Assembly: GCA_016927655.1 (NCBI GenBank)
Contig: JAFGMG010000012.1
Span: 1-40,617 of the forward strand
DNA: 40,617 nucleotides
Direction: 5' to 3'
DNA from: Candidatus Dojkabacteria bacterium
Lineage (GTDB): Bacteria; Patescibacteriota; Dojkabacteria; B142; JAFGMG01
The notes under the pieces are model-generated. The model was not told the DNA's origin, did not search any database, and worked only from the letters and a program-made list of their open reading frames with translations. The translations under genes were made by a program, and so were the position numbers. Shown here piece after piece: positions 207 to 21,387 of this stretch. Every line of letters begins with the position of its first letter. Within the stretch, counting starts at the first letter, position 1.

Positions 207-3200
207 TTAACCGCATTTTGAAAATCCGCATCCCCTGCATAGAATACATCCCTCAGCATATTCGAGATCACCTCCGCATTCCGGGCATTCCATTAGATCC
301 CCAGTCATATTTTTTGTTGTGTATTTAGAGGAAGCCTCGATTACAGGCTTTGTGGGCGCAATCGTTTCAGCAATCACAGCATCATCTGCTGCCATTTCTT
401 CGATTTCTTCAGTCTTTTCATCTTTGCTTTTTTCAAACATTTTCAATTGCTCCTTCCGTTCATTCATATGTCTTTTTATAATTTTTGCAACTGCATCTGG
501 TACAGAATATACAAATACCCCTCCCTTATTCATCGTGGGCTGACCTGATCTTATTCCTAGCAGCTGTTTTATTATCTCATCAGTTTCGATTCCAGACCTG
601 AGCCCTAATGATACCAGTCTCCCAACTGCCTCCATAAATCCAGATGTAAAACTCCCGCTTTTGCCAACTCCCTGTAAAAATATTTCAAATGGTCCTACTT
701 CATCCTCATTAATCGTTACAAAAAGTCTTCCCTGATTTGTTTCAATCTTATATGTAAATCCCTTTACGACATCAGGTCTTTCTTTTGGTGTTCTTATCTG
801 GCGTGATTCTTCTTTGACCTGTACAATTTCTTTTTTCTTTTCAGCAGTCCCAACCTGAAGTGCAGCATCTTTACTTCCGTCTCTAAACACTGTGATCCCT
901 TTGCATCCAAGATCAAATGCCAATTCATAGACTTTTGCAATATCTCGCCAGGTTGCAGAAGCTGGCAGATTAATGGTCTTTGAAACAGCACTATCAACAT
1001 ACTTCTGAAACGCTGCCTGGATTTTCACATGCTGAGCAGGCTCAATTTCATGAGTTGTCACAAATATGTCAATCACATCATCTGGAATATTGTACTTATC
1101 TTTTATTTCAGATAAATGCTTTCCGTTTGCAATGTCTTTGATTAATTCCTCGCTGTGAAACCCTCGCTCTTTTGCAATTGATTCGAATAGATGTTCAATC
1201 ACTTCCTGATCAGCGCCGCCCATAGAATTTTTCCTCCTATAACCTAGTGCAAAAATCGGCTCTATTCCAGGATTACAATTTGCGATAATACTTACACTTC
1301 CAGTTGGAGCTATCGTTGTTGTTCTTGTATTGCGCATAAATTTAATTTTTGGATTTTGAGCCCATATTGAATTTTCAAATTCAGGGAAATTCCCTTTTTC
1401 TTCGCCTAGTTCTTCGCTAGCTTCATGTGCTTTTTGCTGTATAAATTTCATGATTTTCTCAGCTGCAATTTCAGCCTCATTTGACTTGTATGAAATGCCA
1501 AGCTTTATCAGAAAGTCCGCGTAACCCATCACTCCAAGTCCTACATTCCTTGTTCGAGTAGTCATTTCTTCAATTTCTCTTATTGGATAGTTATTAATAT
1601 CTATTATATTATCCAAAAACCGCACTCCAAGCTTTGTCACTTGTTCAAGCCTTTCCCAGTCAATTGTTTTTAATTTCTCTGGTAAATCCATATCCCTTAT
1701 CTTTGGATTTTCAAGATATGGGAATCCTTTTATAAATTTCGATACGTCGATATTTCCAAGATTGCATGTCTCGTATGGTATTAGAGGCTGCTCTCCGCAT
1801 GGATTTGTACTATCCATTTTGCCAAGTTCCGGCGTTGTATTCCCTTTCTCCGCAGTATCAATAAAGAACATTCCCGGATCTCCGCTAAGCCAGGCATGTT
1901 CAGCAATTTTTTGAAATAGTTCGCGCGCTTTTATTGTTTTGCATACTTCTCTGCTGTGGGGATCAATCAACTCCCATTCCTGATCCTCTTTGACAGCCTT
2001 CATGTATTTATTCGTAATACCAACTGAGATATTGTAATGAGAAAGCCCTTCCAAATCGTCTTTAACTCGTATAAAGTGCTCAATGTTTGGATGATCTACA
2101 TTTAAAATTGCCATTGAACCTAATCCTCTTCCTCCTCGGCCCTTTATAGTATCTTGGGCACGGTTAAACATCTTCAAATATTCAATTGGACCCGCAGCTT
2201 TCTCTCCTGTTGTTTTGACAATTGCATAGGTACTGCGAATTTTTGAGAAATTAAACCCAGTACCAACCCCGCGTCTTAGCATTTGAATGTTTTGATTCAA
2301 TGCCCCAAATATAGAATCAATTGAATCGTCTATTGGCAGGACGAGGCATTTTGACATTACAGAATCAGTCCCAAGTCCAGCATATATTAAAGTCCCTCCG
2401 CTCAAAAATTCGCCTGAATTCATTATTTCAAAAAATTCTTTCTCATATCTCCTGGCTTTTCTTCCATCATATTTTGTTTCCGCCCCTGCCACATACCTTG
2501 CAATTCTTTTCCAAAGCTCATCTGGTGTTTCAATCACATTTCCATTATCGTCTTTTTTGAGTGCCCGTTTTTCTAGTACCTGATATGCATTTGGCGTTAA
2601 TTCATATGTATCTGTGTATTTAAATTCGCTTTCTTCCTTTTTCACAGATTCCACTTGTTTTTTGTCGGTACTATTTTCAAGTACCTGCATCTGCTTGCTT
2701 CCATCGCGGTAAATCGTAATTCCCTTGCAGCCGGTTTCCCAGGCTTGTATATATGATTTCCTCACATCCTCAACAGTTGCATCATTTGGAAGATTTATTG
2801 TTTTTGAAACCGCTGCATCAACAAATTTCTGTGCTGCTGATTGAATTTTTACGTGCCATTCAGGGCTTACATCATGAGTGGTGACAAATATTTTCTTTGC
2901 TTCATCTGGGACCTCATCAAGCCCTGCAAGTGAGCCGTTATTTTCAGCAATTTTCTCCATCAATTCCTTCGAGTAGAATTTGTGTTTTTTTGCATAGGCT
3001 TCGAATTGCTCGTTAACGTAGAGTAACTGCTTATGATCTTCTTTGCCGTCATCCTGGTAGAATCCCCTGTATTTATACACTAATGAAAATACCGGCTCGA
3101 TCCCGCTTGATGTGTTTGCAATCAGGCTGAGTGTGCCTGTTGGAGCAATTGAGCTCATAGTGGCATTGCGCACTTTTTTCCCTTCTTTTTCCCATTTACT

Positions 3201-4463
3201 ATTTTTAAACCCCGGAAAAGTCCCTCTATTTTTAGCAAGTGTGATTGATGCTTTTTCAGCTTCTTCCTGGACAAATTTCATTATTTTTGTTGTCAAATCA
3301 ATTGCCTCGTCGCTGTTGTATGGTATTTTCATCTCGAAAAACAATGTAGCAAGACCTACCAAACCAAGACCAAGCTTTCTTGTCTTTTCAACCTCACGCT
3401 TTATCTTTTCAAGAGGATATACGCTTAAATCGATCATATTGTCTAGAATATTTATCGCTTTGTGAGTTGAATCTTTTAGCTTGTCCCAGTCAATTTGTCC
3501 TTTTGAATCCAAATGCGATGGCAGTACAATAGATCCAAGATTGCATGATTCATAAGCTCTTAATGGCTCCTCACCGCAAGGGTTCGTCGCTTCTATCACC
3601 CCAATCTCAGGTGTCGGATTAGCTCTCTGCGCTGTATCAAGAAAAAATAATCCTGGATCCGCACATTCCCATGCGCTCTGGCATATTTTATCAAATACAT
3701 CTCTAGCTCTTAATTTATCTACCACTTCGTCATTTCTTGGGTTTATCAATTCATATTCTTCATCGTTTTTTACCGCGTTCATAAATATATCGGTAATTCC
3801 TACCGATAGATTGAAATTTCTGATTACAGATTCCCCAGACTTCAAATCAATAAAATCTAAAATATCTGGATGATTTACGTTCAAAATACCCATATTCCCA
3901 CCTCCGCGCTTTTTCCCCTGCAATATATGATCAAAAGATTGAGAATAACTTCTTATAAAATGAATCGGGCCTGCAGCTACATTTGGAGTTCCCCCGACAC
4001 TGTCACCCTTTGGACGAATATGCGAAAAATTAAATCCCGTACCTCCGTTATTTTTCTGAACTATAGCGGCTTCTTTCATTGTCTGAAAAATACTATCAAG
4101 ACCATCCTCAACGGGTAATACAAAGCATGACGCAAGCTGTCCTGTGCCATCTATATAATTTCCTGCTTCGTAAAGAACCCTAGCTCCCGGAAGAAACTTA
4201 TTTCTGCTCATCAGATCATAAAACTCTTTTGCTTTTTTGTTTATTTCAAGCATAGAAAATCCGTTTTTTCTTTCTTCAAGTGCGAAAGAAGCCGCTACTC
4301 TCCAAAACATTTCCTTTGGACCTTCAAGAAAATCGCCCTTTTCGTTTTTTAGGAAGCTGCGTTTCTTCATGATTTCAAGTGTGTTTTTGGATATATTTGG
4401 CTTCTCCAGCTCCTTTGGCGGATTTTTTATAAATTCAAGCTCGTCTTTCGTATATTTTTTCAT
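207..4463 (-). CDS. nrdJ: Class II (adenosylcobalamin) ribonucleotide reductase with two tandem catalytic barrels plus C-terminal TSCPD-like domain and Cys-rich tail
   Basis: Barrel A (~aa 20-600): LASCFV, NPCGEEPL, ESCNLGS, SIAPTGT, AVSKTIN, KGITIYRDGSK. Barrel B (~aa 621-1200): SKCLV, NPCGEQPL, ETCNLGN, TIAPTGS, AVSKTIN, KGITVFRDGSK. C-terminus CPECGG...GCILCRGCGFSKCG. No class I YY pair; no ATP cone. Confidence 0.93.
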   Translation of the reverse strand: MKKYTKDELEFIKNPPKELEKPNISKNTLEIMKKRSFLKNEKGDFLEGPKEMFWRVAASFALEERKNGFSMLEINKKAKEFYDLMSRNKFLPGARVLYEAGNYIDGTGQLASCFVLPVEDGLDSIFQTMKEAAIVQKNNGGTGFNFSHIRPKGDSVGGTPNVAAGPIHFIRSYSQSFDHILQGKKRGGGNMGILNVNHPDILDFIDLKSGESVIRNFNLSVGITDIFMNAVKNDEEYELINPRNDEVVDKLRARDVFDKICQSAWECADPGLFFLDTAQRANPTPEIGVIEATNPCGEEPLRAYESCNLGSIVLPSHLDSKGQIDWDKLKDSTHKAINILDNMIDLSVYPLEKIKREVEKTRKLGLGLVGLATLFFEMKIPYNSDEAIDLTTKIMKFVQEEAEKASITLAKNRGTFPGFKNSKWEKEGKKVRNATMSSIAPTGTLSLIANTSSGIEPVFSLVYKYRGFYQDDGKEDHKQLLYVNEQFEAYAKKHKFYSKELMEKIAENNGSLAGLDEVPDEAKKIFVTTHDVSPEWHVKIQSAAQKFVDAAVSKTINLPNDATVEDVRKSYIQAWETGCKGITIYRDGSKQMQVLENSTDKKQVESVKKEESEFKYTDTYELTPNAYQVLEKRALKKDDNGNVIETPDELWKRIARYVAGAETKYDGRKARRYEKEFFEIMNSGEFLSGGTLIYAGLGTDSVMSKCLVLPIDDSIDSIFGALNQNIQMLRRGVGTGFNFSKIRSTYAIVKTTGEKAAGPIEYLKMFNRAQDTIKGRGGRGLGSMAILNVDHPNIEHFIRVKDDLEGLSHYNISVGITNKYMKAVKEDQEWELIDPHSREVCKTIKARELFQKIAEHAWLSGDPGMFFIDTAEKGNTTPELGKMDSTNPCGEQPLIPYETCNLGNIDVSKFIKGFPYLENPKIRDMDLPEKLKTIDWERLEQVTKLGVRFLDNIIDINNYPIREIEEMTTRTRNVGLGVMGYADFLIKLGISYKSNEAEIAAEKIMKFIQQKAHEASEELGEEKGNFPEFENSIWAQNPKIKFMRNTRTTTIAPTGSVSIIANCNPGIEPIFALGYRRKNSMGGADQEVIEHLFESIAKERGFHSEELIKDIANGKHLSEIKDKYNIPDDVIDIFVTTHEIEPAQHVKIQAAFQKYVDSAVSKTINLPASATWRDIAKVYELAFDLGCKGITVFRDGSKDAALQVGTAEKKKEIVQVKEESRQIRTPKERPDVVKGFTYKIETNQGRLFVTINEDEVGPFEIFLQGVGKSGSFTSGFMEAVGRLVSLGLRSGIETDEIIKQLLGIRSGQPTMNKGGVFVYSVPDAVAKIIKRHMNERKEQLKMFEKSKDEKTEEIEEMAADDAVIAETIAPTKPVIEASSKYTTKNMTGDLMECPECGGDLEYAEGCILCRGCGFSKCG

Positions 4464-4486
4464 AAGTGTTCCTTTTGATAGATTAG

Positions 4487-4897
4487 TTATTTCCTAAATG
4501 CGGCCTTTAGAATTTCATCTGTGCCCCTGAGCAGCGGGACATTTTTCAAATTTGAGATCGGGAACCATCCGACATCAAGAATGTCATCATGATCATCCAG
4601 GTTCATCAATTTCTCGCTTTTTGTCTGGGCAATGTAGTGAATAAGTGTCAATTGTTTATCCTTCTCATATAAATAACTTTGAATTACAGGCAGCAATTTC
4701 AAATCAACAATTTTTATTCCAATTTCTTCTTTGCATCTTCTAACTAATGTTTCCTCAGGATGCTCTCCAAACTGTATAATTCCTCCCGGCAGCGCCCACT
4801 TTTTGTGAAATTTCGGGTTCGGATCATTTCTCTGCTGCAAGATCACATTATTGTTTTTTACGATAACTCCAAAGCTGCCCCATAACTGCTGTTGCAC
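4487..4897 (-). CDS. Nudix-family protein (variant Nudix box)
   Basis: WALPGG followed by GIIQFGEHPEETLVRRCKEEIGI, i.e. GX5EX7R(E>R)UXEEXGU. GTG start; an in-frame stop lies 7 codons upstream. Confidence 0.85.
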   Translation of the reverse strand: MQQQLWGSFGVIVKNNNVILQQRNDPNPKFHKKWALPGGIIQFGEHPEETLVRRCKEEIGIKIVDLKLLPVIQSYLYEKDKQLTLIHYIAQTKSEKLMNLDDHDDILDVGWFPISNLKNVPLLRGTDEILKAAFRK

Positions 4898-4994
4898 TTT
4901 GATCTGGATAAGAATTTATATTTTTCCGTTCAGTCACAACTAGTGACCCATCAGGCTTAATCGTTATTATTGTTACTTGTTTTTCGCCATTCAT
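4848..4994 (-). CDS. Possible 48-aa small ORF (or frameshifted N-terminus of the Nudix gene)
   Basis: ATG 9 nt after the nrdJ (5004) stop: MNGEKQVTIITIKPDGSLVVTERKNINSYPDQSATAVMGQLWSYRKKQ*. It fills the gap in the operon and overlaps the Nudix start by 50 nt. Confidence 0.35.
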   Translation of the reverse strand: MNGEKQVTIITIKPDGSLVVTERKNINSYPDQSATAVMGQLWSYRKKQ

Positions 4995-5003
4995 TTTTAT
5001 GAT

Positions 5004-6764
5004 CTATTTTTTTAGATTTAAAACCTGTTTGTCACGACTTTTATCTCTATAAATTGTCAAACCTTTCAGGTGTTGATCAATCGCAAGATAAAATGCTTTT
5101 TCAATATCTTCGACTGTTGATTTCTCAGGTAAATTAATTGTTTTTGAAACAGCATTATCTGTATATTTCTGAAATGCTCCCTGCATCTTTATGTGCCACT
5201 CTGGAGCAATATCATAAGAAACTACAAATATTTTTTTAATTTCTTCCGGCATTTCATCTATATTTTGCAATGTGCCTTCTTTTGCAATTTTTTCCATGAT
5301 TTCCTGCGAATACATCCAGTCCTTTTTCAGTCTTTTTTCTAATATTGCATTTGTCATTATCATTTCTGTTTCTGCTCCAACTGTTTCCATATTTTTGCGT
5401 ACATAGGCAAGTGCAAAAACCGGCTCAATTCCTCCATTTACATCTGCAACAAGTGATGTTGTGCCATTTGGTGCAATAGTTGTTACCGTTGCATTTCTCA
5501 TATGCTTGTAGCCTTTTTTGTCCCACCTGGAGCCTTTGAAATTCCCAAAATCTCCCTTTTGTTCTCCAAGCTCCTGTGATGCTTCGTGTGATTTTTCCTG
5601 GATGAATTTCATAACTTTTCTGGCAAGAACCAATGCTTCTTCGCTGTCATATGGAATTTCAAGTAAATAAAGTAAATCAGCCCAGCCCATAACTCCAATT
5701 CCCACTTTTCTGTTTCCATATTTGACCATTTGCTCAATCTCAGGTAATAAATGCTTTGAGACTGTGATTGTATTGTCTAGAAACCTAACGCCTGTTTTGA
5801 CAACGTATTCAAGTCTATCCCAGTCAATCCTGCCACCATTGTAGAATTTAGAAAGGACAACTGAACCTAAATTGCATGCCTCATATGGAAGCAGAGGCTG
5901 CTCACCGCATTGGTTTGTCGCAGTCATTTTCCCGACGTTTGGTGTTGGATTTGTACGATTTACCTCATCGATAAATATAAATCCCGGCTCTCCGCTTCTA
6001 TATATCGAATCTGTTATCTCACGAAGCAGCTTTTTTGGATCAATTTCGCGATATATTTTCCCGCCAAATTCCAGTTCAAAAGTTTTTCTTTCTTTGAGGG
6101 CCTCTACAAATTTATCTGTAATTGCAATGGAAATATTGAAATTTGTCAGCTGCGAATAATCCTGCTTTGCACTTATAAACTTCTCAATATCAGGATGATC
6201 TATCCGCAAAATTCCCATATGACCTGCATGCCTTTGAGACCCGCGGTTCATGATTGTTTCAGATGAAAAGTCGTACAACCTCATAAATGAAATTGGTCCG
6301 CTTGCTTCTCTGCCAGTTGAATGTACTTTTTCACCCTCCGGCCTGACTTCTGACCAGTCGTAGCCGATACCGGCTCCACGCCTGTGAAGAGTAGTTGTAT
6401 TTGCCAAAGTTGTATAAATTGACTCAACTGAATCATGGATAGGCATTACATAGCATGCTGCAACCAGCTCTTCGCGCCCACGATCCAGCAGACTCATACC
6501 GGATAGAAATTCAAGATTTGCCTGAATTTCATAAAAATCATCTTCAATTTTCTCTAATTCATTTTTATTTGGTGCTTTGTAGCCTTTTTTCTTGTCACTC
6601 AGATCTTTTTCTCCCGATGCAATAAATTCTGATACTCTTTTGAATAAATCCGATATACTTTCCTTTGGATTACCAGATTCGTCAACTTTTAAATATCTCT
6701 TAGCGGCAATAAATCTTGCATTCTGGCTCAAATTTGGTTTTAGTGAAAATCTACTGTTTTTCAA
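5004..6764 (-). CDS. nrdJ: Class II ribonucleotide reductase, single catalytic barrel lacking the C-terminal Cys tail (NrdJa-like)
   Basis: AACYV, NQCGEQPL, EACNLGS, TIAPNGT, DNAVSKTIN, KGLTIYRDKSR; ends at KQVLNLKK. Confidence 0.9.
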   Translation of the reverse strand: MKNSRFSLKPNLSQNARFIAAKRYLKVDESGNPKESISDLFKRVSEFIASGEKDLSDKKKGYKAPNKNELEKIEDDFYEIQANLEFLSGMSLLDRGREELVAACYVMPIHDSVESIYTTLANTTTLHRRGAGIGYDWSEVRPEGEKVHSTGREASGPISFMRLYDFSSETIMNRGSQRHAGHMGILRIDHPDIEKFISAKQDYSQLTNFNISIAITDKFVEALKERKTFELEFGGKIYREIDPKKLLREITDSIYRSGEPGFIFIDEVNRTNPTPNVGKMTATNQCGEQPLLPYEACNLGSVVLSKFYNGGRIDWDRLEYVVKTGVRFLDNTITVSKHLLPEIEQMVKYGNRKVGIGVMGWADLLYLLEIPYDSEEALVLARKVMKFIQEKSHEASQELGEQKGDFGNFKGSRWDKKGYKHMRNATVTTIAPNGTTSLVADVNGGIEPVFALAYVRKNMETVGAETEMIMTNAILEKRLKKDWMYSQEIMEKIAKEGTLQNIDEMPEEIKKIFVVSYDIAPEWHIKMQGAFQKYTDNAVSKTINLPEKSTVEDIEKAFYLAIDQHLKGLTIYRDKSRDKQVLNLKK

Positions 6765-7203
6765 GTTCGGCTATTTCTTTTTTAAAATCGTTAATTGAAT
6801 TGAAATCGCGGTAAACAGATGCGAATAGTAAATATCCAACTGAATCCAGCTTTCTAAGTCTGGTCAGCACCATCTTTCCTATATCGGTTGATTTAACCTG
6901 GGTCGTTCTTCTGTTTAACAATCTAAGCTCTATATCATCTATCAGCTCTTCAATTTGTTCGTCATTTATGGGTCTCTTTTTGACTGCCTTTAAAACACCT
7001 TTTTTTAACTTCTCTCTGTCAAATTCCTGCAATCTCCCTGATCTTTTCTCAACCATCAAAGATATATTTTGAATTCGCTCATAAGTTGTAAACCTTTTAC
7101 CACAATCCAGGCACTCCCGCCTTCTCCTTGTTGCGCTGGTTTCATCGTTATCCCTTTTATCAACTACTTTATTCTCTTTTGATTTGCAATATGGGCAAAG
7201 CAA
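6751..7203 (-). CDS. nrdR: Transcriptional repressor NrdR
   Basis: CPYC...RRRRECLDCGKRFTTYER Zn ribbon plus ATP cone (VEKRSG..EFDREKL...FASVYRDF); TTG start. Confidence 0.97.
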   Translation of the reverse strand: MLCPYCKSKENKVVDKRDNDETSATRRRRECLDCGKRFTTYERIQNISLMVEKRSGRLQEFDREKLKKGVLKAVKKRPINDEQIEELIDDIELRLLNRRTTQVKSTDIGKMVLTRLRKLDSVGYLLFASVYRDFNSINDFKKEIAELEKQ

Positions 7204-7407: not shown

Positions 7408-7455
7408 CCACAATTTCTTGTGTGTGGAAACAGACTACATAACAACTCCTTGTAT
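7408..7455. promoter_or_regulatory. Tandem NrdR boxes
   Basis: CCACAATTTCTTGTGT (7408-7423) and TAACAACTCCTTGTAT (7440-7455) resemble acaCwAtATaTwGtgt and start 32 bp apart, the usual tandem spacing. Confidence 0.75.
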
Positions 7456-13182: not shown

Positions 13183-15807
13183 CTATTTCCAAAGACTATA
13201 CTTACTTGTCAGTTCATCGATTTTATCCCGATCTCCCCAAATTCCAATCCCATAGTACTCCAATTCGTCAGAATTTTTGTCTCTTAGAACCTTATCGATA
13301 TCCTCGTCTTTCTTAACTTCAAGATGCTCAGCTAAAAATGGATACTTTATTAGGTTAGTATTTATCAACTCAGAGTTCAATTTTTTAAGAGCCTTCCCAC
13401 CAGTTTTCAAAACAACAATTGGGTACTGACCACTTCTGTCAAAGCTTTCTCCAGTTTTGGTCTTATATGGCCTTCCAGAGTGAAAATTTTCTTTATCTAT
13501 TTGGTTACCAAGATATGCAGAAATATGCCCAACAGTATTCAAGACCTTCCAGTTTTCCAGGTCTTCATTGACTACTATGACTATTTTCTTGCTCATGTCC
13601 TGATTCCCACTTTTTGCGGTAACTGCAGGTTCTTTATTACCAACGTTTTCTTGTGTGTAATCCTTCTCCCCGCTAAACTCTTTCATATTGCTAAATGTCT
13701 TTATCAGACTTTCTGCTAGCTCACCAAAGTCTATTCCAAGACCATCTATCCCCAACTGCACGTCTTCTCTGTCAATCTTTCTTGCGAAGCCTTTGTCTTT
13801 GAATTTCTTCCTGATTGATTTGACCTTCATGTCATCAAATCTTCCATCTTTCATTTTCGAATATGCATAGAGGAGCCCTGCGAACTCGTCCACTGCTAAG
13901 ATTGCATTGGCCAAAACAGTCTTCGGCATCACATCTGTGAGTTTGTATGCATGCGCAGCAACTGCATGTATCATTGCCTCCGGATATCCCCATTCCTTGA
14001 ACCACTCTAACTCTGTATTAGGATGCTCGTCTGGGTGCTTGTCAAAATCAAGATCGTGAAATAGACCAGTTATATACCACAAATTTTTATCTTCATTATA
14101 CTTTTCTGCTAGATCCTCAAGCGCAGCTCCTACCATCTTTGCATGAAGGAATTGGTATTCATCCTTGACGTATTTTTCCAGTATCTTCAAAGCGTCTCCT
14201 TTGTTTGGTAGCCCCTTTGTATCCTGACTAATTTTTGGATCATTAGTCTCTTTTTTCCCTTGAACATTTAACCCAACATACTCTTCTCCATATATCTCTT
14301 TTTGTATTTTTGTCACTGGCGAGCGTCTCATCATCGGAAAGAAAATTACGTCATCTATATATTCCGACTCAGTAAACATCATCGCCAATCTTTCAATTCC
14401 AGGGCCCAGACCAGTGGTTGGAGGCATCCCATACTCCATTGCCTCTATAAACTCTATGTCCATTGGATGTGCTTCTTCATCACCACCAAGTTTTCTGTTA
14501 TGTTGCTCTTTGAATCTCTCAAAAAGCTCGACTGGATCGTTTAATTCAGTCCAATTGTCTCCTGCTTCCATTCCCCCCATAAAAACTTCAAATCTTTCTA
14601 CAAATCTTTTGTCGCCTTCCATTCGTTTTGCAAGCGGAGAAATCTCAACAGGATGACCGTAAATAAAAACTGGCTCAATAAGATGCTCTTCAACCTTGGC
14701 TTCAAAAACTTTAAACATAGACTCTCCAATTGATTTTGGTTTTTCTTCCTGGTAGCCTATTTCGTCTAGGATTTTGTGTGCTTCATCTAAACTCTTTACC
14801 TGGTCAAAGTCATAATTCGCATATTTTTTGACTGCATCAAGCATGGTGATTTTTGCCCATGGCTTTTGCAGGTCAACTTCCTGACCCTTTATTTTGAAAT
14901 TGTATTTATCAAAAACATTTTTCGCAATATATTTATACATTTCCTCAGTCAGGTCCATATTAAACTCATAGTTCTCATATGCTGACATTGTCTCAAGAAT
15001 ATTAAATTCAGGATTATGTGTTCTATCAATCCCTTCATTTCTAAAATAGCCAACTATATTAAATACATTTTCAAAACCGGCAACTATTAATCTTTTCAGA
15101 TACAATTCGTGTGCAATCGCTAAGTAAAAATCTTCCCCAAGTGCATTCACAGTTGTCATAAAAGGTTTAGCAGAACTTCCGCCATATACAGGCTGTATGA
15201 TTGGGGTCTTTATTTCCAAAAATCCTTTTGAGTCCATAAAGGCACGAATATTAAAGAGAATTTTTGCAGCAATTTCAAACTTCTTCATTTTCTCTGGATG
15301 CATTATCATATCCAGATATCTCTGTCTAAAGAGTGTTTCTTTGTCCTTTATTCCTTGATGTTTATCCGGAAGAGGTCGAATTGCCTTTGTTAGGATTTTG
15401 AACTCCTTTACTAATAAAGATACTTCCCCGCTATTTGTCTTTGTGACTACACCTGTAGCTTGGACTATGTCGCCAACATCTATTAAATTTAGATCCGAAA
15501 ATCCAATTGTCTGCTTTTCTTTTGAAGTTTCTAACAGTTCTTCGCCTTTGATATAAAGTTGTAATTGCCCAGTTTGATCCTGAATATGACCAAAAAATAG
15601 TGCCCCATGTTCCCGCTTTGATACCAATCTGCCAGCTACAGTCAACGTTTTTCCGTCATAGCTATCATAGTCACTGACTATATCTTTGAGGTGCACATCC
15701 CTCTTTGCTTTCGAAGGATATGAGTTGATTCCAAGTTGCTTCAATTTCTCAACTTTGTCTAGTCTTTCCTGTCTGATTTGTGCGAGAGTTGAGCGCGGAT
15801 TATCCAT
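13183..15807 (-). CDS. lysS: Class II lysyl-tRNA synthetase fused to an HD-superfamily hydrolase and a DUF2000-like domain
   Basis: OB fold, RQRYLD, YFRNEGIDRTHNPEF, ELNDP, EYGMPPTTGLGPGIERL (aa 1-~495); then H..HD..H..D domain; then KKIVIVVNEDL..WKVLNTVGHISAYLG...LTSKYSLWK. Confidence 0.95.
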   Translation of the reverse strand: MDNPRSTLAQIRQERLDKVEKLKQLGINSYPSKAKRDVHLKDIVSDYDSYDGKTLTVAGRLVSKREHGALFFGHIQDQTGQLQLYIKGEELLETSKEKQTIGFSDLNLIDVGDIVQATGVVTKTNSGEVSLLVKEFKILTKAIRPLPDKHQGIKDKETLFRQRYLDMIMHPEKMKKFEIAAKILFNIRAFMDSKGFLEIKTPIIQPVYGGSSAKPFMTTVNALGEDFYLAIAHELYLKRLIVAGFENVFNIVGYFRNEGIDRTHNPEFNILETMSAYENYEFNMDLTEEMYKYIAKNVFDKYNFKIKGQEVDLQKPWAKITMLDAVKKYANYDFDQVKSLDEAHKILDEIGYQEEKPKSIGESMFKVFEAKVEEHLIEPVFIYGHPVEISPLAKRMEGDKRFVERFEVFMGGMEAGDNWTELNDPVELFERFKEQHNRKLGGDEEAHPMDIEFIEAMEYGMPPTTGLGPGIERLAMMFTESEYIDDVIFFPMMRRSPVTKIQKEIYGEEYVGLNVQGKKETNDPKISQDTKGLPNKGDALKILEKYVKDEYQFLHAKMVGAALEDLAEKYNEDKNLWYITGLFHDLDFDKHPDEHPNTELEWFKEWGYPEAMIHAVAAHAYKLTDVMPKTVLANAILAVDEFAGLLYAYSKMKDGRFDDMKVKSIRKKFKDKGFARKIDREDVQLGIDGLGIDFGELAESLIKTFSNMKEFSGEKDYTQENVGNKEPAVTAKSGNQDMSKKIVIVVNEDLENWKVLNTVGHISAYLGNQIDKENFHSGRPYKTKTGESFDRSGQYPIVVLKTGGKALKKLNSELINTNLIKYPFLAEHLEVKKDEDIDKVLRDKNSDELEYYGIGIWGDRDKIDELTSKYSLWK

Positions 15808-17565: not shown

Positions 17566-20500
17566 TTACGTGTTATTAACTAAATCAACTACCCACTCTA
17601 GATCAATTGGAACAGGGTCATATAAATCCATTATACACTGTCCATTGTCAGTTCTATAGCTTGAAACACCTTGTATTTGAGCAAGCCTATCTAGTACAAG
17701 CAAAACTTCAAATGAAAATCCTGGATTTGTTTCAATTGGACCGTATTTTTGCAGATATTCTCCAGGTCGTTCTGGATTAAATTCATAAAGCATACTACAT
17801 CCATCTAACTTTCTTGTAACGCATGCCAGCTCCTCATCAAAATTCTGCGGAGGAGTACCACAATAAACCCCGCATCCGAACACATCACTTTTGAAGCCCT
17901 TGTTTTTGAATGTTGGGTTCATTCCATTTTCTGATAGCCATATAGATACTAAAAGCTGGAATTTGATGTCATCGTGCGCTTCTTTATACATCTCGTCCAT
18001 GAACTGATTTATCTCTGGTATTGAGTAATAATCTATTTCGTTGTATGAGGCACCTAAATAATCTATATTTTTATTCGCCAGTTTCACTACCCAATTCTTT
18101 ATCTTGTTTTTGCAGCTCTCATCGCATGTGCTGATTTGAATTGGACATGTGTTTATTAATTTTTGCTGCATTTCTCCTACATTACCGTATTCAAAAATCC
18201 CTTCTGTACTTACAGCTTCCTGCGCAATTTCTAATATACGAGCACTTTGATACCCTTCTTCGCCCTCTAATGTCTCACAAACCTCAAGCCCCATGAATCT
18301 ATCCCCAGATCCTGTATATTCATTTTCATCCAAGTACGCCAAAGGATCAACTGTGCAATCAAGGCCATCATAGTCATAGCAGCCTTCGTAGCGAAGTTCG
18401 AAATGCAGATGCGGACCAGTTGAATTCCCGCTGTTTCCTGTGTATCCAATTTGATCGCCTTGTAAGACTGTATCACTAATCGCCACCGAAACAGAATTTA
18501 GATGAGCATAAACGCTGTGAAAATCACCATGATCAATTACAATCAAGCCGCCGTAGCTGCTGTCTTGATACAAACCATTCCCTATTGTCACAGTTTCTCC
18601 CGGATTTCTTGCATAAATTACTTTCCCATCTGCAACTGCAAGAAGTACAGAATTTACAGGCGTTCCTATATCAATACCCGGATGAATCGCTGCATTTGCA
18701 GACAGATAAGGTGTTACTCCATAATATTGAGTGATATTTCTACTTGTAACCGGCCATATTAAATTTACGTTACCAAGTTCTCTATCAGATACTGGAATAT
18801 CTTCCATCGGTATACATTCATTTATGCAGTATTTCGCAGTAAGAAGATCATTCTGGCAAAGCCACTGATTGAGAGGATCAACCTGATACTTCGTGCCTAG
18901 ACAGTCTGTTGTATTGATAAGTCTTATTAAAAGTTCCCTCTTCTGCTCTGACATATTTGAATTATTTTCTATACTGTCTGCTAGATCGCCTAAGTCGCTG
19001 CATGTGAAAATATTGCTAGGATTACCAAGCGTGTCCTGGACTTTTGTAATTATCTGAGATTCAGAAGAAAGATTTAGAAATGTCGTCATTAATTTCAACT
19101 CATCCTTCCTACTATTTAAATAGTCATCTTCAATAGTGTCAGTAAATATCAAACTGCTCCTTTTTGACATATTTACTATCTGGCCAAGCCACGGGATATA
19201 ATGATCTGCAGCTCCAATTGATTTGCCGGTTATCCCTCTCAAATTTTCGGTCACCGGCGCTAGTGACAGGCTTCCGTCAATCAGCTCATATTGAGTACAG
19301 CTCGCATCAGTGGAAAGTGGCTGTTTGTAATCACCTTTAAAGTTTGTTCCGTCGTATAGCTTCTTTTCAGTTTTAACTATTATTCCAGATTGATCTTTGT
19401 GAATAATTTGATATCTCCCATACCACGGATTATCCAGCAATTCTTCTTTGTACATCTGGGCAAGTGCCTGCCCTGCACCCGGTATTTCAATTTTTTCAGT
19501 TGCTACGGTTTGAGCTACTGTATTGCCGTCAATTTTTAAATACGAAGAACTGGCTCCACCGCTGGCATCTATTCTTCCTTCAGATACTGCGTCTAGATAG
19601 CCCTGTCGATCAAATTCGATCATATCATCATAAATTATGATTTCGGGCCCGATTAGATTGTCAGTATTATTTACATGGTTTATGACTCCGCCGCATCTAT
19701 ATTCATCGCCAGTTAATTCAGAGATTGTCAATTTGCTTCCACCTTCTGGGATAGGACCTGTAATTTCTTGTGTAAATGCTGAAGAGTTTGTAGCGTCAAT
19801 GCTATTATATGGCGGGAATCTTGAGTCCAATTCTCTAAGACTCATTGATTCTTCAGAATTTAGGGCCCAATAAATCATACAAGCAAGGGAATTCCCAAGT
19901 GCCGGCATTTGATAATCTGATACTTCTCCATTTTCATGTGTAATTTTTACAAGTCCAGAAAATTGCGCAGCAAGATTAAACTGGCTTGACATTTGTTTAT
20001 CGAACGCACAAGGAGGAAGAAATGGATTTTCATTTGTGCCTGGATAATCCGCTGTGTCATAAAGATTGCTGCTACCCATCCAGTTTAGAAGAGAGAAACC
20101 CGTAATTTGCTGCGTAATGACTGCTCTTGCACTATAACCGCCTAGATCATTTGACTTCATACTTACTCCAGCAAATACATCATCGTATTTGCCCCTGGCT
20201 TGTCCTGATGGGGTAGTGTTTACTCTCTCGCATGATTCAAGGGAAGGATAGTCCGAAACAGCGGAAAGCTTGCACGAATAATCAGACGTTGTCTCGGCTG
20301 TTCGAGCAGAGCATTGTTCAAATAAATACGCCCAGACCTCAGAGCTTATGCTTAAATTTTCGTTTCCAGAGTTGCTTCCTCGCCAGCCCCAGGGAGAAAA
20401 AATATAAACACCATCAATCTTATCCAAATTTGCATTTACAAAACCCAGCAAATTTTCTGCATAGCCATCAATATCTGGTGCTTGATTAATCTGATTAGCT

Positions 20501-21387
20501 CCAAATATTGTGTATTTAACATCTGTTATTCCTTTATCAGCTAAAATCTGTTCATACTTCGCAAACATTGTTGCAAAATTGTCGGCATGACCTGCGCTTT
20601 CTGTATCATATTGAATACTTAAGCCGAAATTAGCAAAATCACTTGCACTTCCTGCCAACTGACCATTCCCATCTCCAAAGTAATTACCTGTGAATTCTGA
20701 AATATAGTTTGCGTTGTTTGGATTGTGATAATTAAATGCTGGGAACACCAAATAATCAACTGTGTTGCTTATCTCTGGGTTATCGTTTGCCTTGAGGCCG
20801 TCTACGACTTCTTTTAGCCATTTCGAACCATCAATCGGAGCATTATCTCCATATTTCCATGCAAGTTCTGTTCTTGGTTCATTTACCGGCATTACTTGAA
20901 TATCTACACCAAGATTGCTTGTCACTTCTATGATAGTTGATATCTTTCTAATCGCATCGGCAGCTTCAAATACATTTGGCTCCTCACCATACCCAAGCCT
21001 AAATAGATGGACTGATTTACCTGATGGAAGTTTTGCAGCCTCGATTATCTGCGATTCTGATGTCCCTGGCAATACAGCTGTACCTACAACTGCTAATCTC
21101 GTTTCATTGTAATAGGCTGCATATGAGTCCCCCGCAGGGACAGATGTCTCAACCCCAGTCTCCAACCCCAAAACGTCGCATGCGCTTGTCTTGTTTTCGA
21201 TTCCGCGGACTTCTCCTGCATATTTCCTTGTGACTTCCTGATCTTCTGCTCTTTGCTTTGCAATAAATATGCTCGCTAGAGCGATGGTTGTTACTCCAAT
21301 AAGCAGGAAAAACGCGAGACGATTATTTTCCTTCGAGGGACTGTTTTTCATTATTCTCATTCTAGAGAAGTTTGACTCAATTGACAA
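17566..21387 (-). CDS. Large membrane-anchored, Cys-rich extracellular protein with M23 peptidase domain
   Basis: N-terminal TM; WPV..RNITQYYG, HPGIDIG (HxxxD), YAHL, GNSGNSTGPHLHFE (HxH), VDPLAYL. The true start may be a slightly downstream Met. Confidence 0.85.
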   Translation of the reverse strand: MSIESNFSRMRIMKNSPSKENNRLAFFLLIGVTTIALASIFIAKQRAEDQEVTRKYAGEVRGIENKTSACDVLGLETGVETSVPAGDSYAAYYNETRLAVVGTAVLPGTSESQIIEAAKLPSGKSVHLFRLGYGEEPNVFEAADAIRKISTIIEVTSNLGVDIQVMPVNEPRTELAWKYGDNAPIDGSKWLKEVVDGLKANDNPEISNTVDYLVFPAFNYHNPNNANYISEFTGNYFGDGNGQLAGSASDFANFGLSIQYDTESAGHADNFATMFAKYEQILADKGITDVKYTIFGANQINQAPDIDGYAENLLGFVNANLDKIDGVYIFSPWGWRGSNSGNENLSISSEVWAYLFEQCSARTAETTSDYSCKLSAVSDYPSLESCERVNTTPSGQARGKYDDVFAGVSMKSNDLGGYSARAVITQQITGFSLLNWMGSSNLYDTADYPGTNENPFLPPCAFDKQMSSQFNLAAQFSGLVKITHENGEVSDYQMPALGNSLACMIYWALNSEESMSLRELDSRFPPYNSIDATNSSAFTQEITGPIPEGGSKLTISELTGDEYRCGGVINHVNNTDNLIGPEIIIYDDMIEFDRQGYLDAVSEGRIDASGGASSSYLKIDGNTVAQTVATEKIEIPGAGQALAQMYKEELLDNPWYGRYQIIHKDQSGIIVKTEKKLYDGTNFKGDYKQPLSTDASCTQYELIDGSLSLAPVTENLRGITGKSIGAADHYIPWLGQIVNMSKRSSLIFTDTIEDDYLNSRKDELKLMTTFLNLSSESQIITKVQDTLGNPSNIFTCSDLGDLADSIENNSNMSEQKRELLIRLINTTDCLGTKYQVDPLNQWLCQNDLLTAKYCINECIPMEDIPVSDRELGNVNLIWPVTSRNITQYYGVTPYLSANAAIHPGIDIGTPVNSVLLAVADGKVIYARNPGETVTIGNGLYQDSSYGGLIVIDHGDFHSVYAHLNSVSVAISDTVLQGDQIGYTGNSGNSTGPHLHFELRYEGCYDYDGLDCTVDPLAYLDENEYTGSGDRFMGLEVCETLEGEEGYQSARILEIAQEAVSTEGIFEYGNVGEMQQKLINTCPIQISTCDESCKNKIKNWVVKLANKNIDYLGASYNEIDYYSIPEINQFMDEMYKEAHDDIKFQLLVSIWLSENGMNPTFKNKGFKSDVFGCGVYCGTPPQNFDEELACVTRKLDGCSMLYEFNPERPGEYLQKYGPIETNPGFSFEVLLVLDRLAQIQGVSSYRTDNGQCIMDLYDPVPIDLEWVVDLVNNT

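Follow-up and report, generated by a model that had tools for sequence, protein, structure and literature searches.

A conserved multi-barrel class II ribonucleotide reductase in Dojkabacteria, with barrel-specific loop-2 motifs and a possible division of substrates

The stretch of DNA analysed here (the window) comprises 40,617 nucleotides of contig JAFGMG010000012.1, from the 0.91-Mb, 97% complete genome of a Candidatus Dojkabacteria bacterium (assembly GCA_016927655.1). On its reverse strand lies a cluster of ribonucleotide reductase (RNR) genes, in which the repressor gene nrdR is followed by a gene for one NrdJ-like catalytic barrel (C), a NUDIX hydrolase gene and a single gene that joins two further barrels (A and B) in one polypeptide (Table 1). 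Judged by profile matches and catalytic residues, the RNR proteins are members of class II NrdJ. The fused protein, which has two copies each of PF02867 and PF00317, scores 838.3 and 103.4 bits with these models, and barrel C, with one copy of each, scores 395.9 and 28.4 bits. Both proteins pass the NCBIfam model TIGR02504 (NrdJ_Z; A-B 1239.2 bits, C 588 bits, cut-off 399.95). The fused protein also passes PRK08665, the vitamin B12-dependent RNR equivalog (NCBIfam NF006417; 1666.2 bits, cut-off 961), its best stretch being amino acids (aa) 617-1418, that is, B and the tail, against model positions 7-759 of 759. Barrel C reaches 712.5 bits with the same model and, being under the cut-off, is no member of that equivalog. 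Membership in the monomeric ribonucleoside triphosphate reductases (RTPR) was rejected, since the TIGR02505 scores of 94.3 and 65.6 bits lie far under the 340-bit cut-off. What departs from class II NrdJ is the family-typical specificity motifs, the copy number, the fusion and the distribution of tails. A C-terminal Cys-rich zinc-finger tail is present in most class II RNRs; here the TSCPD domain and the Cys-rich tail sit on B, and A and C are without a tail, the translated C protein ending in ...YRDKSRDKQVLNLKK with no Cys there. The tail of the fused protein is nearly invariant across a 79-row alignment of fused proteins (A1). We rejected an assembly or frameshift artefact, because the fusion is one clean open reading frame (ORF) both here and in 118 listed database proteins (described below), and inteins were likewise rejected, none being present in A, B or C.

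Table 1. Positions in the window of the RNR cluster and of the barrel motifs (residue numbers in capitals-and-number form follow Thermotoga maritima NrdJ)
Feature	Position	Strand	Evidence
nrdR, 150 aa, Zn-ribbon and ATP-cone repressor, first gene of the cluster	6751..7203	-	Pfam PF22811 and PF03477
Barrel C gene, NrdJ-like, 586 aa, without C-terminal TSCPD/Cys tail	5004..6764	-	PF02867 and PF00317
NUDIX hydrolase (136 aa), located between the C gene and the fused gene	4487..4897	-	PF00293, 70.1 bits
NrdJ gene of 1418 aa with two fused barrels (order A, linker, B, TSCPD, Cys tail)	207..4463	-	single uninterrupted ORF
Barrel A, aa 1 to ~610 of the 1418-aa ORF	2634..4463	-	phmmer domain 21-609 of the stop-to-stop frame
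Barrel B, aa ~620-1215 of the 1418-aa ORF	819..2606	-	phmmer domain 620-1215
TSCPD domain, aa 1237-1333 of the fused protein	465..755	-	PF12637, 69.9 bits
Cys-rich C-terminal tail CPECGG...CILCRGCGFSKCG, sole such tail for A, B and C	210..287	-	translation
A loop 2 ILQGKKRGGGNMG, aa 180-192, Gln203 and Arg207 equivalents kept	3888..3926	-	
B loop 2 IKGRGGRGLGSMA, aa 773-785, Gln203 to Gly	2109..2147	-	
C loop 2 IMNRGSQRHAGHMG, aa 171-184 of the 586-aa ORF	6213..6254	-	
A Ser91 segment FLPGARVLYEAG, Ser91 to Ala, Pro92 to Arg	4161..4196	-	
B Ser91 segment FLSGGTLIYAG, one residue shorter, Ser91 to Gly	2376..2408	-	
C segment FLSGMSLLDRG, equivalent of T. maritima 87-98, Ser91 to Gly	6477..6509	-	
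A segment KNNGGTG, Lys158 kept, Gly160 to Asn	4035..4055	-	
B segment RRGVGTG, Lys158 to Arg, Gly161 to Val	2256..2276	-	
C segment RRGAGIG, Lys158 to Arg, Gly161 to Ala	6363..6383	-	
A finger-loop motif NPCGE	3570..3584	-	
B finger-loop motif NPCGE	1791..1805	-	
C finger-loop motif NQCGE (Asn320, Cys322, Glu324 equivalents)	5901..5915	-	

The original prediction, made from the letters of the window, held that each barrel has its own non-canonical specificity loop (loop 2) and substrate-site motifs. All nine peptides that it quoted are present in the window, each one base away from the coordinate given for it. Residues are numbered here as in T. maritima NrdJ (1xje), from HMMER alignments in which we mapped Cys134, Asp141, Lys158, Gly160-162, Arg171, Lys202, Gln203, Arg207, Asn320, Cys322, Glu324 and Cys333; the roles of Ser91, Arg207, Asp141, Arg171 and Lys158 follow Table 4, the part of Zimanyi et al. 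2016 (PMC4728125) relied on for them. The "canonical" motifs of that prediction hold for the family. The reference set was drawn from 18,986 matches to C: of the 150 best, each representing a cluster at 50% identity, 149 were used, and among these a loop 2 of the form [KRQ]Q[GS][GSA]xR[RM]GA occurs in 123 (107 contiguous, 16 split by an insertion), the strict form KQG[GS]xRRGA in 96, and the segment [PF]N[ST]P[TAC]x in 134. The 26 loop-2 exceptions are either barrels of the candidate phyla radiation (CPR) type (P0124-P0128, P0150, P0165, P0202) or mild variants that keep GGxRRGA. None of the window barrels has KQGGxRRGA or PNSPT, and as these motifs dominate the family, being typical of it and not strictly defining, A, B and C are outliers. 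Many NrdJ representatives carry a large intein-like insertion (...C and HN junctions) inside loop 2, between KQGG and xRRGANMG; the carriers are P0132, P0148, P0153, P0154, P0156, P0160, P0166, P0176, P0203, P0212, P0214, P0250, P0252, P0263 and P0264.

The predicted loss of the base-reading Gln203 from B and C was borne out: the position is Gln in A, Gly in B, and in C either Asn (MAFFT) or Arg (HMMER). The prediction that the substrate-contacting Arg207 aligns in all three barrels holds when the barrels are aligned with MAFFT (20/20 A, 19/19 B, 20/20 C) but not in the pairwise HMMER alignment, which puts the Arg of B at 206, so that for B the equivalence depends on the alignment. The two methods place loop 2 of B and C in registers that differ by one residue, and the apparent extra residue in the loop of C can be placed before the loop in the HMMER alignment.

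To follow the motifs beyond the window we compared related genomes. A Pfam search of 41 of them found RNR barrels in 35, and 20 loci were examined, 19 from related genomes and one with the window genome's own fourth barrel (D, see below). Together with the window, the cluster set comprises 20 genomes of four families, with 18 clusters complete and two cut by contig ends, and the barrels compared number 20 for A, 19 for B and 20 for C. Loop 2 of A reads [IV]LQGKKRGGGNM in 17/20 barrels and RQ[GS]GKRGG[GA]N in the other three (G004, G026, G035), which also keep the canonical FxPNSPT. Loop 2 of B reads xxG[RK]GGRGLGSMA in 17/19 and IIGRGGRQMGSMA in 2/19, and that of C reads I[ML]NRG[SA]xRHAGHMG in 20/20. 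Members of an orthogroup share loop-2 identities of 0.89 for A, 0.90 for B and 0.93 for C, compared with 0.65, 0.68 and 0.69 for the whole barrels, and loop-2 identity between barrels is 0.31-0.45. This pattern is far beyond chance. Random variation of the loops among orthologs, which would have told against the original prediction, was looked for and not found: each orthogroup has a loop variant that is nearly invariant over the 20 genomes. For B and C, the Ser91 segment and the GGG strand are as group-specific as loop 2.

The difference between A and B extends well beyond this group. In the protein database, 7963 of the 8000 candidates scored had E<=1e-50, and we examined 120 listed matches and the query. 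Among these, the NxCGE motif occurs twice in 119, and 118 could be divided cleanly into two barrels; the listed homologous fused proteins are 1373-1676 aa long, and the source names of the listed homologs include Dojkabacteria (WS6), Kerfeldbacteria, Parcubacteria and 'Patescibacteria group'. Gln203 is present in 116 of the 118 A barrels (of the other two, one has Lys and one is unaligned) and in none of the 118 B barrels, where loop 2 reads xxG[RK]GGR... or xxTKGGR.... Two proteins, P0128 and P0150, had been candidates for free-standing B genes, and these were rejected because they start with the end of another barrel, which makes them truncated fusions.

Across the orthogroups, the catalytic and effector-binding framework is retained. 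None of the 20 A, 19 B and 20 C barrels, and neither half of alignment A1, shows any change at the thiyl-radical Cys322, the redox pair Cys134 and Cys333, Asn320 and Glu324, which hold the ribose, the phosphate-latching Arg207 of loop 2, or Asp141 and Arg171, which anchor a deoxyribonucleotide effector. In 19 wider A and 19 wider B barrels these residues are nearly invariant, one A having Asn at 207. Such invariance bears on a first alternative, namely that one or two of the barrels do not turn over and serve as regulatory or structural partners, for instance as effector-binding half-sites; yeast Rnr4 is an example of a catalytically dead RNR subunit paralog. The absence from A and C of a C-terminal Cys tail for re-reduction, with TSCPD and tail on B only, would suit this explanation, as would Gly at position 91 in B and C and the replacement of Gly161 by Val in B and Ala in C. 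However, Cys134, Asn320, Cys322, Glu324, Cys333 and Arg207 show no change in three orthogroups and both halves of 79 fused proteins, and this speaks against a dead site, for which decay would be expected. We therefore consider non-turnover barrels quite unlikely; all three barrels are probably catalytic, to judge by these residues.

The residues that do change lie disproportionately where nucleotides bind, in loop 2, the Ser91 segment and the GGG strand, which read the base and phosphate of the substrate. Position 158 is Lys in A and Arg in B and C (among 31 canonical representatives, Lys in 20 and Gln in 9). Position 91 is Ser or Ala in A (Ser in 16/20, Ala in the window) and Gly in 19/19 B and 20/20 C, Pro92 is replaced by Arg in 17/20 Dojkabacteria A barrels, and Gly161 by Val in 17/19 B and by Ala in 20/20 C. 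At 203, the orthogroups have Gln in A, Gly or Thr in B, and Asn or Arg in C depending on the alignment. We set the nucleotide-binding segments beforehand as T. maritima 87-98, 158-186 and 201-213 (52 of 567 columns). At a 90% threshold, 9 of the 28 group-fixed sites that differ between barrels fall into these columns (odds ratio 5.5, one-sided Fisher p 4e-4), and at 85% it is 19 of 67 (p 8e-7), p-values that are descriptive, as alignment columns are not independent, and that on this account carry less weight for specialised barrels. At 90%, three sites have a different residue in each barrel, and two of these are in loop 2.

These changes raise a second alternative, also put forward in the original prediction, in which the barrels differ in the phosphate state of their substrates, ribonucleoside diphosphates (NDP) or triphosphates (NTP), or use non-standard nucleotides. 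In A, B and C alike, the Ser91 segment that contacts the phosphate is changed, with Arg at 92 in 17 of the 20 A barrels; a NUDIX gene lies between C and A-B; and a Ham1/ITPase domain (PF01725) forms the A-B linker in G006, G022, G026 and G035. Set against this, the APTG motif, the second phosphate-binding element, is kept in the barrels together with Arg207, and NUDIX and Ham1 neighbours would fit hygiene of the deoxyribonucleoside triphosphate (dNTP) pool equally well. We know of no sequence rule for NDP versus NTP use, and we regard this alternative as very unlikely.

We next consider how widely the set occurs as a unit. In a phylum-wide sample of 251 genomes, a match to C was found in 107, and further clusters were classified by motif and tree (G191, flagged unpublished, supports no claim here). 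Four genomes (G161, G242, G286, G128) have a fused A-B gene with a C-type gene upstream, and two (G169 and G051) have C, A and B as unfused genes; the order C, A, B is constant in fused and unfused forms. The B-type ORF of G051 (L059:4316-5479) stops at 388 aa, with a TAA inside the match, and may be a pseudogene or a sequencing error. Directly upstream of every fused A-B gene read (20 Dojkabacteria loci, G063, G161, G242, G286 and G128) there is a third barrel without Gln203. By position, G126 and G189 would each have a B-type gene (703 aa), an assignment that was rejected, as the tree puts these two genes nearer D.

Trees were built with FastTree from 133 and then from 169 barrels; they are quick trees whose supports are local Shimodaira-Hasegawa-like values only. 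On this measure the clades of A (98 with 133 barrels, 97 with 169), B (100 and 99), Dojkabacteria C (100 and 99), the wider C type (97, and 90 to 97) and D plus relatives (99 and 96) are each recovered, and A, B, C and D all fall outside the cluster of canonical representatives. The order of the deep clades is weak (supports 75-88). Within A, B and C the same species groups recur, namely (G000, G001, G002), (G003, G014, G020), (G008, G013, G021), (G010, G012) and (G026, G035), and this matching indicates that the set was inherited together. We thus describe it, from gene content and motifs, as a conserved Patescibacterial multi-barrel class II RNR with the order nrdR, C, A-B and predicted use of adenosylcobalamin; a PduO-type adenosyltransferase is present in the window genome.

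The set is often accompanied by no other reductase. The window genome (G000), 97% complete, has no NrdD (PF13597) and no class I beta subunit (PF00268), and no NrdD was found in any genome of the cluster-bearing families f1, f2, f3 and f7. The window genome does have barrel D on contig C10 (L055:3013-5220, reverse strand), a 736-aa protein made up of an ATP-cone, the NrdJ barrel and a short tail of the CxxC type. Loop 2 of D, FRQQGRYESGNMA, is identical in five Dojkabacteria and conserved in five other Patescibacteria genomes, the pattern across these 10 genomes being FRQ[QE]GRYESGNM. D was seen in G000, G001, G002, G003 and G020; G014 may have a fragment of it. In the 13 genomes in which D was not seen (G004, G006, G008, G010, G012, G013, G015, G017, G018, G021, G022, G026, G035) there is no other PF02867 match and no NRDD, and the set is the only RNR found. 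This implies that C and A-B together would have to supply all four deoxyribonucleotides there. Related genomes that use class III have two adjacent NrdD-like ORFs of ~720 and ~610 aa (G025:C22:19965-23661, G031:C6:34966-38794, G040:C10:24584-28604), perhaps a sign that the catalytic subunit was duplicated in parallel in another class of RNR.

How could three barrels share the work? Modern RNRs reduce all four ribonucleotides through allosteric control of specificity, as stated in a review of RNR evolution (PMC4390871). The logic of loop 2 is known from class Ia RNR of Escherichia coli, and the sections of PMC4728125 drawn on here describe Arg298 (T. maritima Arg207) as latching the phosphate of every substrate, with Arg298Ala inactive, and Gln294 (T. 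maritima Gln203) as swinging in for pyrimidines and out for purines. In Gln294Ala the reduction of cytidine and uridine diphosphate (CDP/UDP) is lowered or lost, and that of adenosine and guanosine diphosphate (ADP/GDP) is kept or raised; three loop-2 conformations correspond to three effector states. We put at about one half the probability that the set described here is a sub-functionalised multi-barrel class II RNR in which A would reduce pyrimidines and B and C purines, with effector binding retained. The job that an ordinary RNR does with one site for four substrates would then be split among paralogs. A, with the pyrimidine-reading Gln, would take CDP/UDP, and B and C, which have no Gln203, would take purines as natural 'Gln-out' enzymes, each barrel being biased to one of the three loop-2 states between which a normal enzyme switches. 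The E. coli positions for the choice between ADP and GDP, Gly299 and Gly300, map, we infer, to T. maritima 208/209, where A reads G-G, B reads G-L and C reads H-A. That A and B are fused here and lie side by side as separate genes in G169 and G051 suggests that the pair would act as an intramolecular equivalent of the usual alpha2 dimer, which forms through the alphaA/alphaB four-helix bundle and carries the specificity sites, and the single tail on B would be a likely shared route of re-reduction.

The original prediction went further and proposed hard-wired, substrate-specialised paralogs that have replaced allosteric switching. Specialisation is plausible, given loops that are nearly invariant per orthogroup in 20 genomes and an A/B difference that persists in 118 fused proteins, but the replacement of switching is not supported, as Asp141, Arg171 and Lys or Arg158 are kept in every A, B and C. 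With these effector anchors in all barrels, dNTP effectors would be expected still to bind, perhaps acting more as on/off inputs, and the data agree better with effectors that gate dedicated sites than with lost allostery. A more far-reaching version would make this the first RNR with substrate choice split among dedicated sites, loop 2 being frozen in a pyrimidine, an adenine and a guanine state, the three among which every RNR studied switches, effectors gating each site on or off, and D serving as a separate general or back-up enzyme; we offer it as tentative and rather doubtful.

Several observations weigh against the proposed division between pyrimidine and purine barrels. Gln294 is called unlikely to be strictly conserved in the portion of PMC4728125 that deals with it. 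In about 15 wider B barrels a Gln stands one residue before position 203 (VQTKGGR). In G126, G189 and G285 the genes C and A are followed by a gene in the B position that belongs to another clade, nearer D, and in G063 the third barrel beside the fused A-B groups with ordinary NrdJ, its loop being INEASARRGAIMG. Across the phylum, loop 2 of the C type differs between lineages (variants VNNASARRGGNMG, VGEAGTRKAGNMG and INEECMRYGGTMG). The sole RNR found in G027 and G036 has the non-canonical loop 2 IKQQGRHGANMA, from which it follows that such a loop alone does not imply narrow specificity and is compatible with the reduction of all four substrates. A single-chain AlphaFold2 model folds both barrels (predicted local distance difference test score 89.8) with the linker, residues 576-593, disordered and a predicted template modelling score of 0.57, so that the packing of A on B is not confidently predicted. 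Finally, the retained effector anchors would be compatible with ordinary effector-driven switching in each barrel.

Several of these points are what one would expect of an ordinary allosteric RNR that is present in several copies, with four substrates per barrel and loops shaped by drift or by co-adaptation in a hetero-oligomer: the anchors Asp141, Arg171 and Lys/Arg158 in all barrels, the odd loops of the sole RNRs in G027 and G036, and the lineage-dependent C-type loop. Yet genomes of 0.8-1.9 Mb keep the three barrels, in fixed order, across families; loop conservation (0.89-0.93) exceeds that of the whole barrels (0.65-0.69); the fixed differences between barrels cluster in the nucleotide-binding segments; and Gln203 divides the A from the B halves of the listed fused proteins (116/118 against 0/118). 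We hold this explanation to be unlikely.

Among known systems, T. maritima NrdJ (1xje/1xjk) is the best PDB match of all three barrels (E 5.6e-117 for A, 3.2e-104 for B, 7e-111 for C). They have in common the barrel, the finger-loop NxCxE, the Cys134/Cys333 pair, Asp141, Arg171 and Arg207, and B shares in addition the TSCPD and Cys-rich C-terminal region that PRK08665 covers end to end. T. maritima NrdJ, a homodimer encoded by one gene, reads VKQGSRRRGALMG in the loop and FIPNSPTLFNAG in the segment; unlike it, the present system has three diverged barrels, two of them fused, with Gln203 in A only, Ser91 replaced and one tail. In the parts of the literature drawn on here, E. coli class Ia NrdA follows the same loop-2 logic, in which an Arg latches the phosphate and a Gln selects pyrimidines, and its Gln294Ala phenotype is a model for what B and C may do. 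It differs in belonging to another class, in being a homodimer that needs a beta2 radical subunit, and in having one loop that switches among three states. Pseudomonas aeruginosa NrdJa/NrdJb is reported, in the abstract of PMC4520616, as another class II RNR of non-standard gene architecture, but there one barrel is split into two polypeptides, whereas the present system fuses two complete barrels and has a third besides. In monomeric RTPR of the Lactobacillus leichmannii type (PMC9669993, in part), one chain supplies both halves of the specificity site, as is proposed here for A-B; RTPR mimics the partner by a long insertion in loop 1, whereas the partner here would be a complete second catalytic barrel. 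In the main texts of the literature searched, we found no description of a tandem-barrel or multi-paralog class II RNR, and supplements might hold such sequences. The portions of two Burnim et al. 2022 texts covered use 'tandem' for ATP-cones only and hold no tandem-barrel class II RNR.

The surroundings of the barrels vary. The first gene, nrdR, scores 164.9 bits with NCBIfam TIGR00244 (cut-off 124.65), and upstream of it lies the palindrome CACAATTTCTTGTG (window 7409-7422), which may be a candidate NrdR-box-like site; CACAN6TGTG has 2 matches in the window, compared with 0.31 expected. A cobalamin riboswitch was rejected, the Rfam matches in the window being two tRNAs only. The MutT-like NCBIfam models all score the window NUDIX protein under their cut-offs, and the genes between C and A-B differ by genome: a 3'-5' exonuclease (PF01612) in G001 (L036:5991-6686), longer NUDIX proteins in G008 (L041:6092-6970) and G012 (L043:3883-4872), and in G008 also a 157-aa ORF with no Pfam match. 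The Ham1/ITPase linker between A and B measures ~200 aa in G035 (L052:6022-6642) and G006 (L040:4230-4862), where PF01725 scores 58.6 and 47.3 bits, and it was recognised in G022 and G026 by sequence likeness; among the 120 listed database homologs, 13 carry PF01725. This linker places a nucleotide-sanitising domain inside an RNR. Elsewhere on the reverse strand of the window, an 874-aa ORF (13183-15807) joins a class II aminoacyl-tRNA synthetase core (PF00152 and an OB anticodon domain) to an HD domain and DUF2000, and the sole Pfam match of a 1273-aa ORF (17566-21387) is an M23 peptidase domain at ~aa 901-1002.

The three diverged barrels occur in genomes of ~1 Mb, a size at which few dispensable genes are retained. 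Hundreds of database entries that bear the name 'adenosylcobalamin-dependent ribonucleoside-diphosphate reductase' are two-barrel fusions with non-equivalent halves. If the proposed division of labour is true, the set would be a natural dissection of loop-2 specificity and a natural counterpart of the Gln294Ala experiment, and it would make it possible to test if dNTP pools can be balanced only with allosteric switching.

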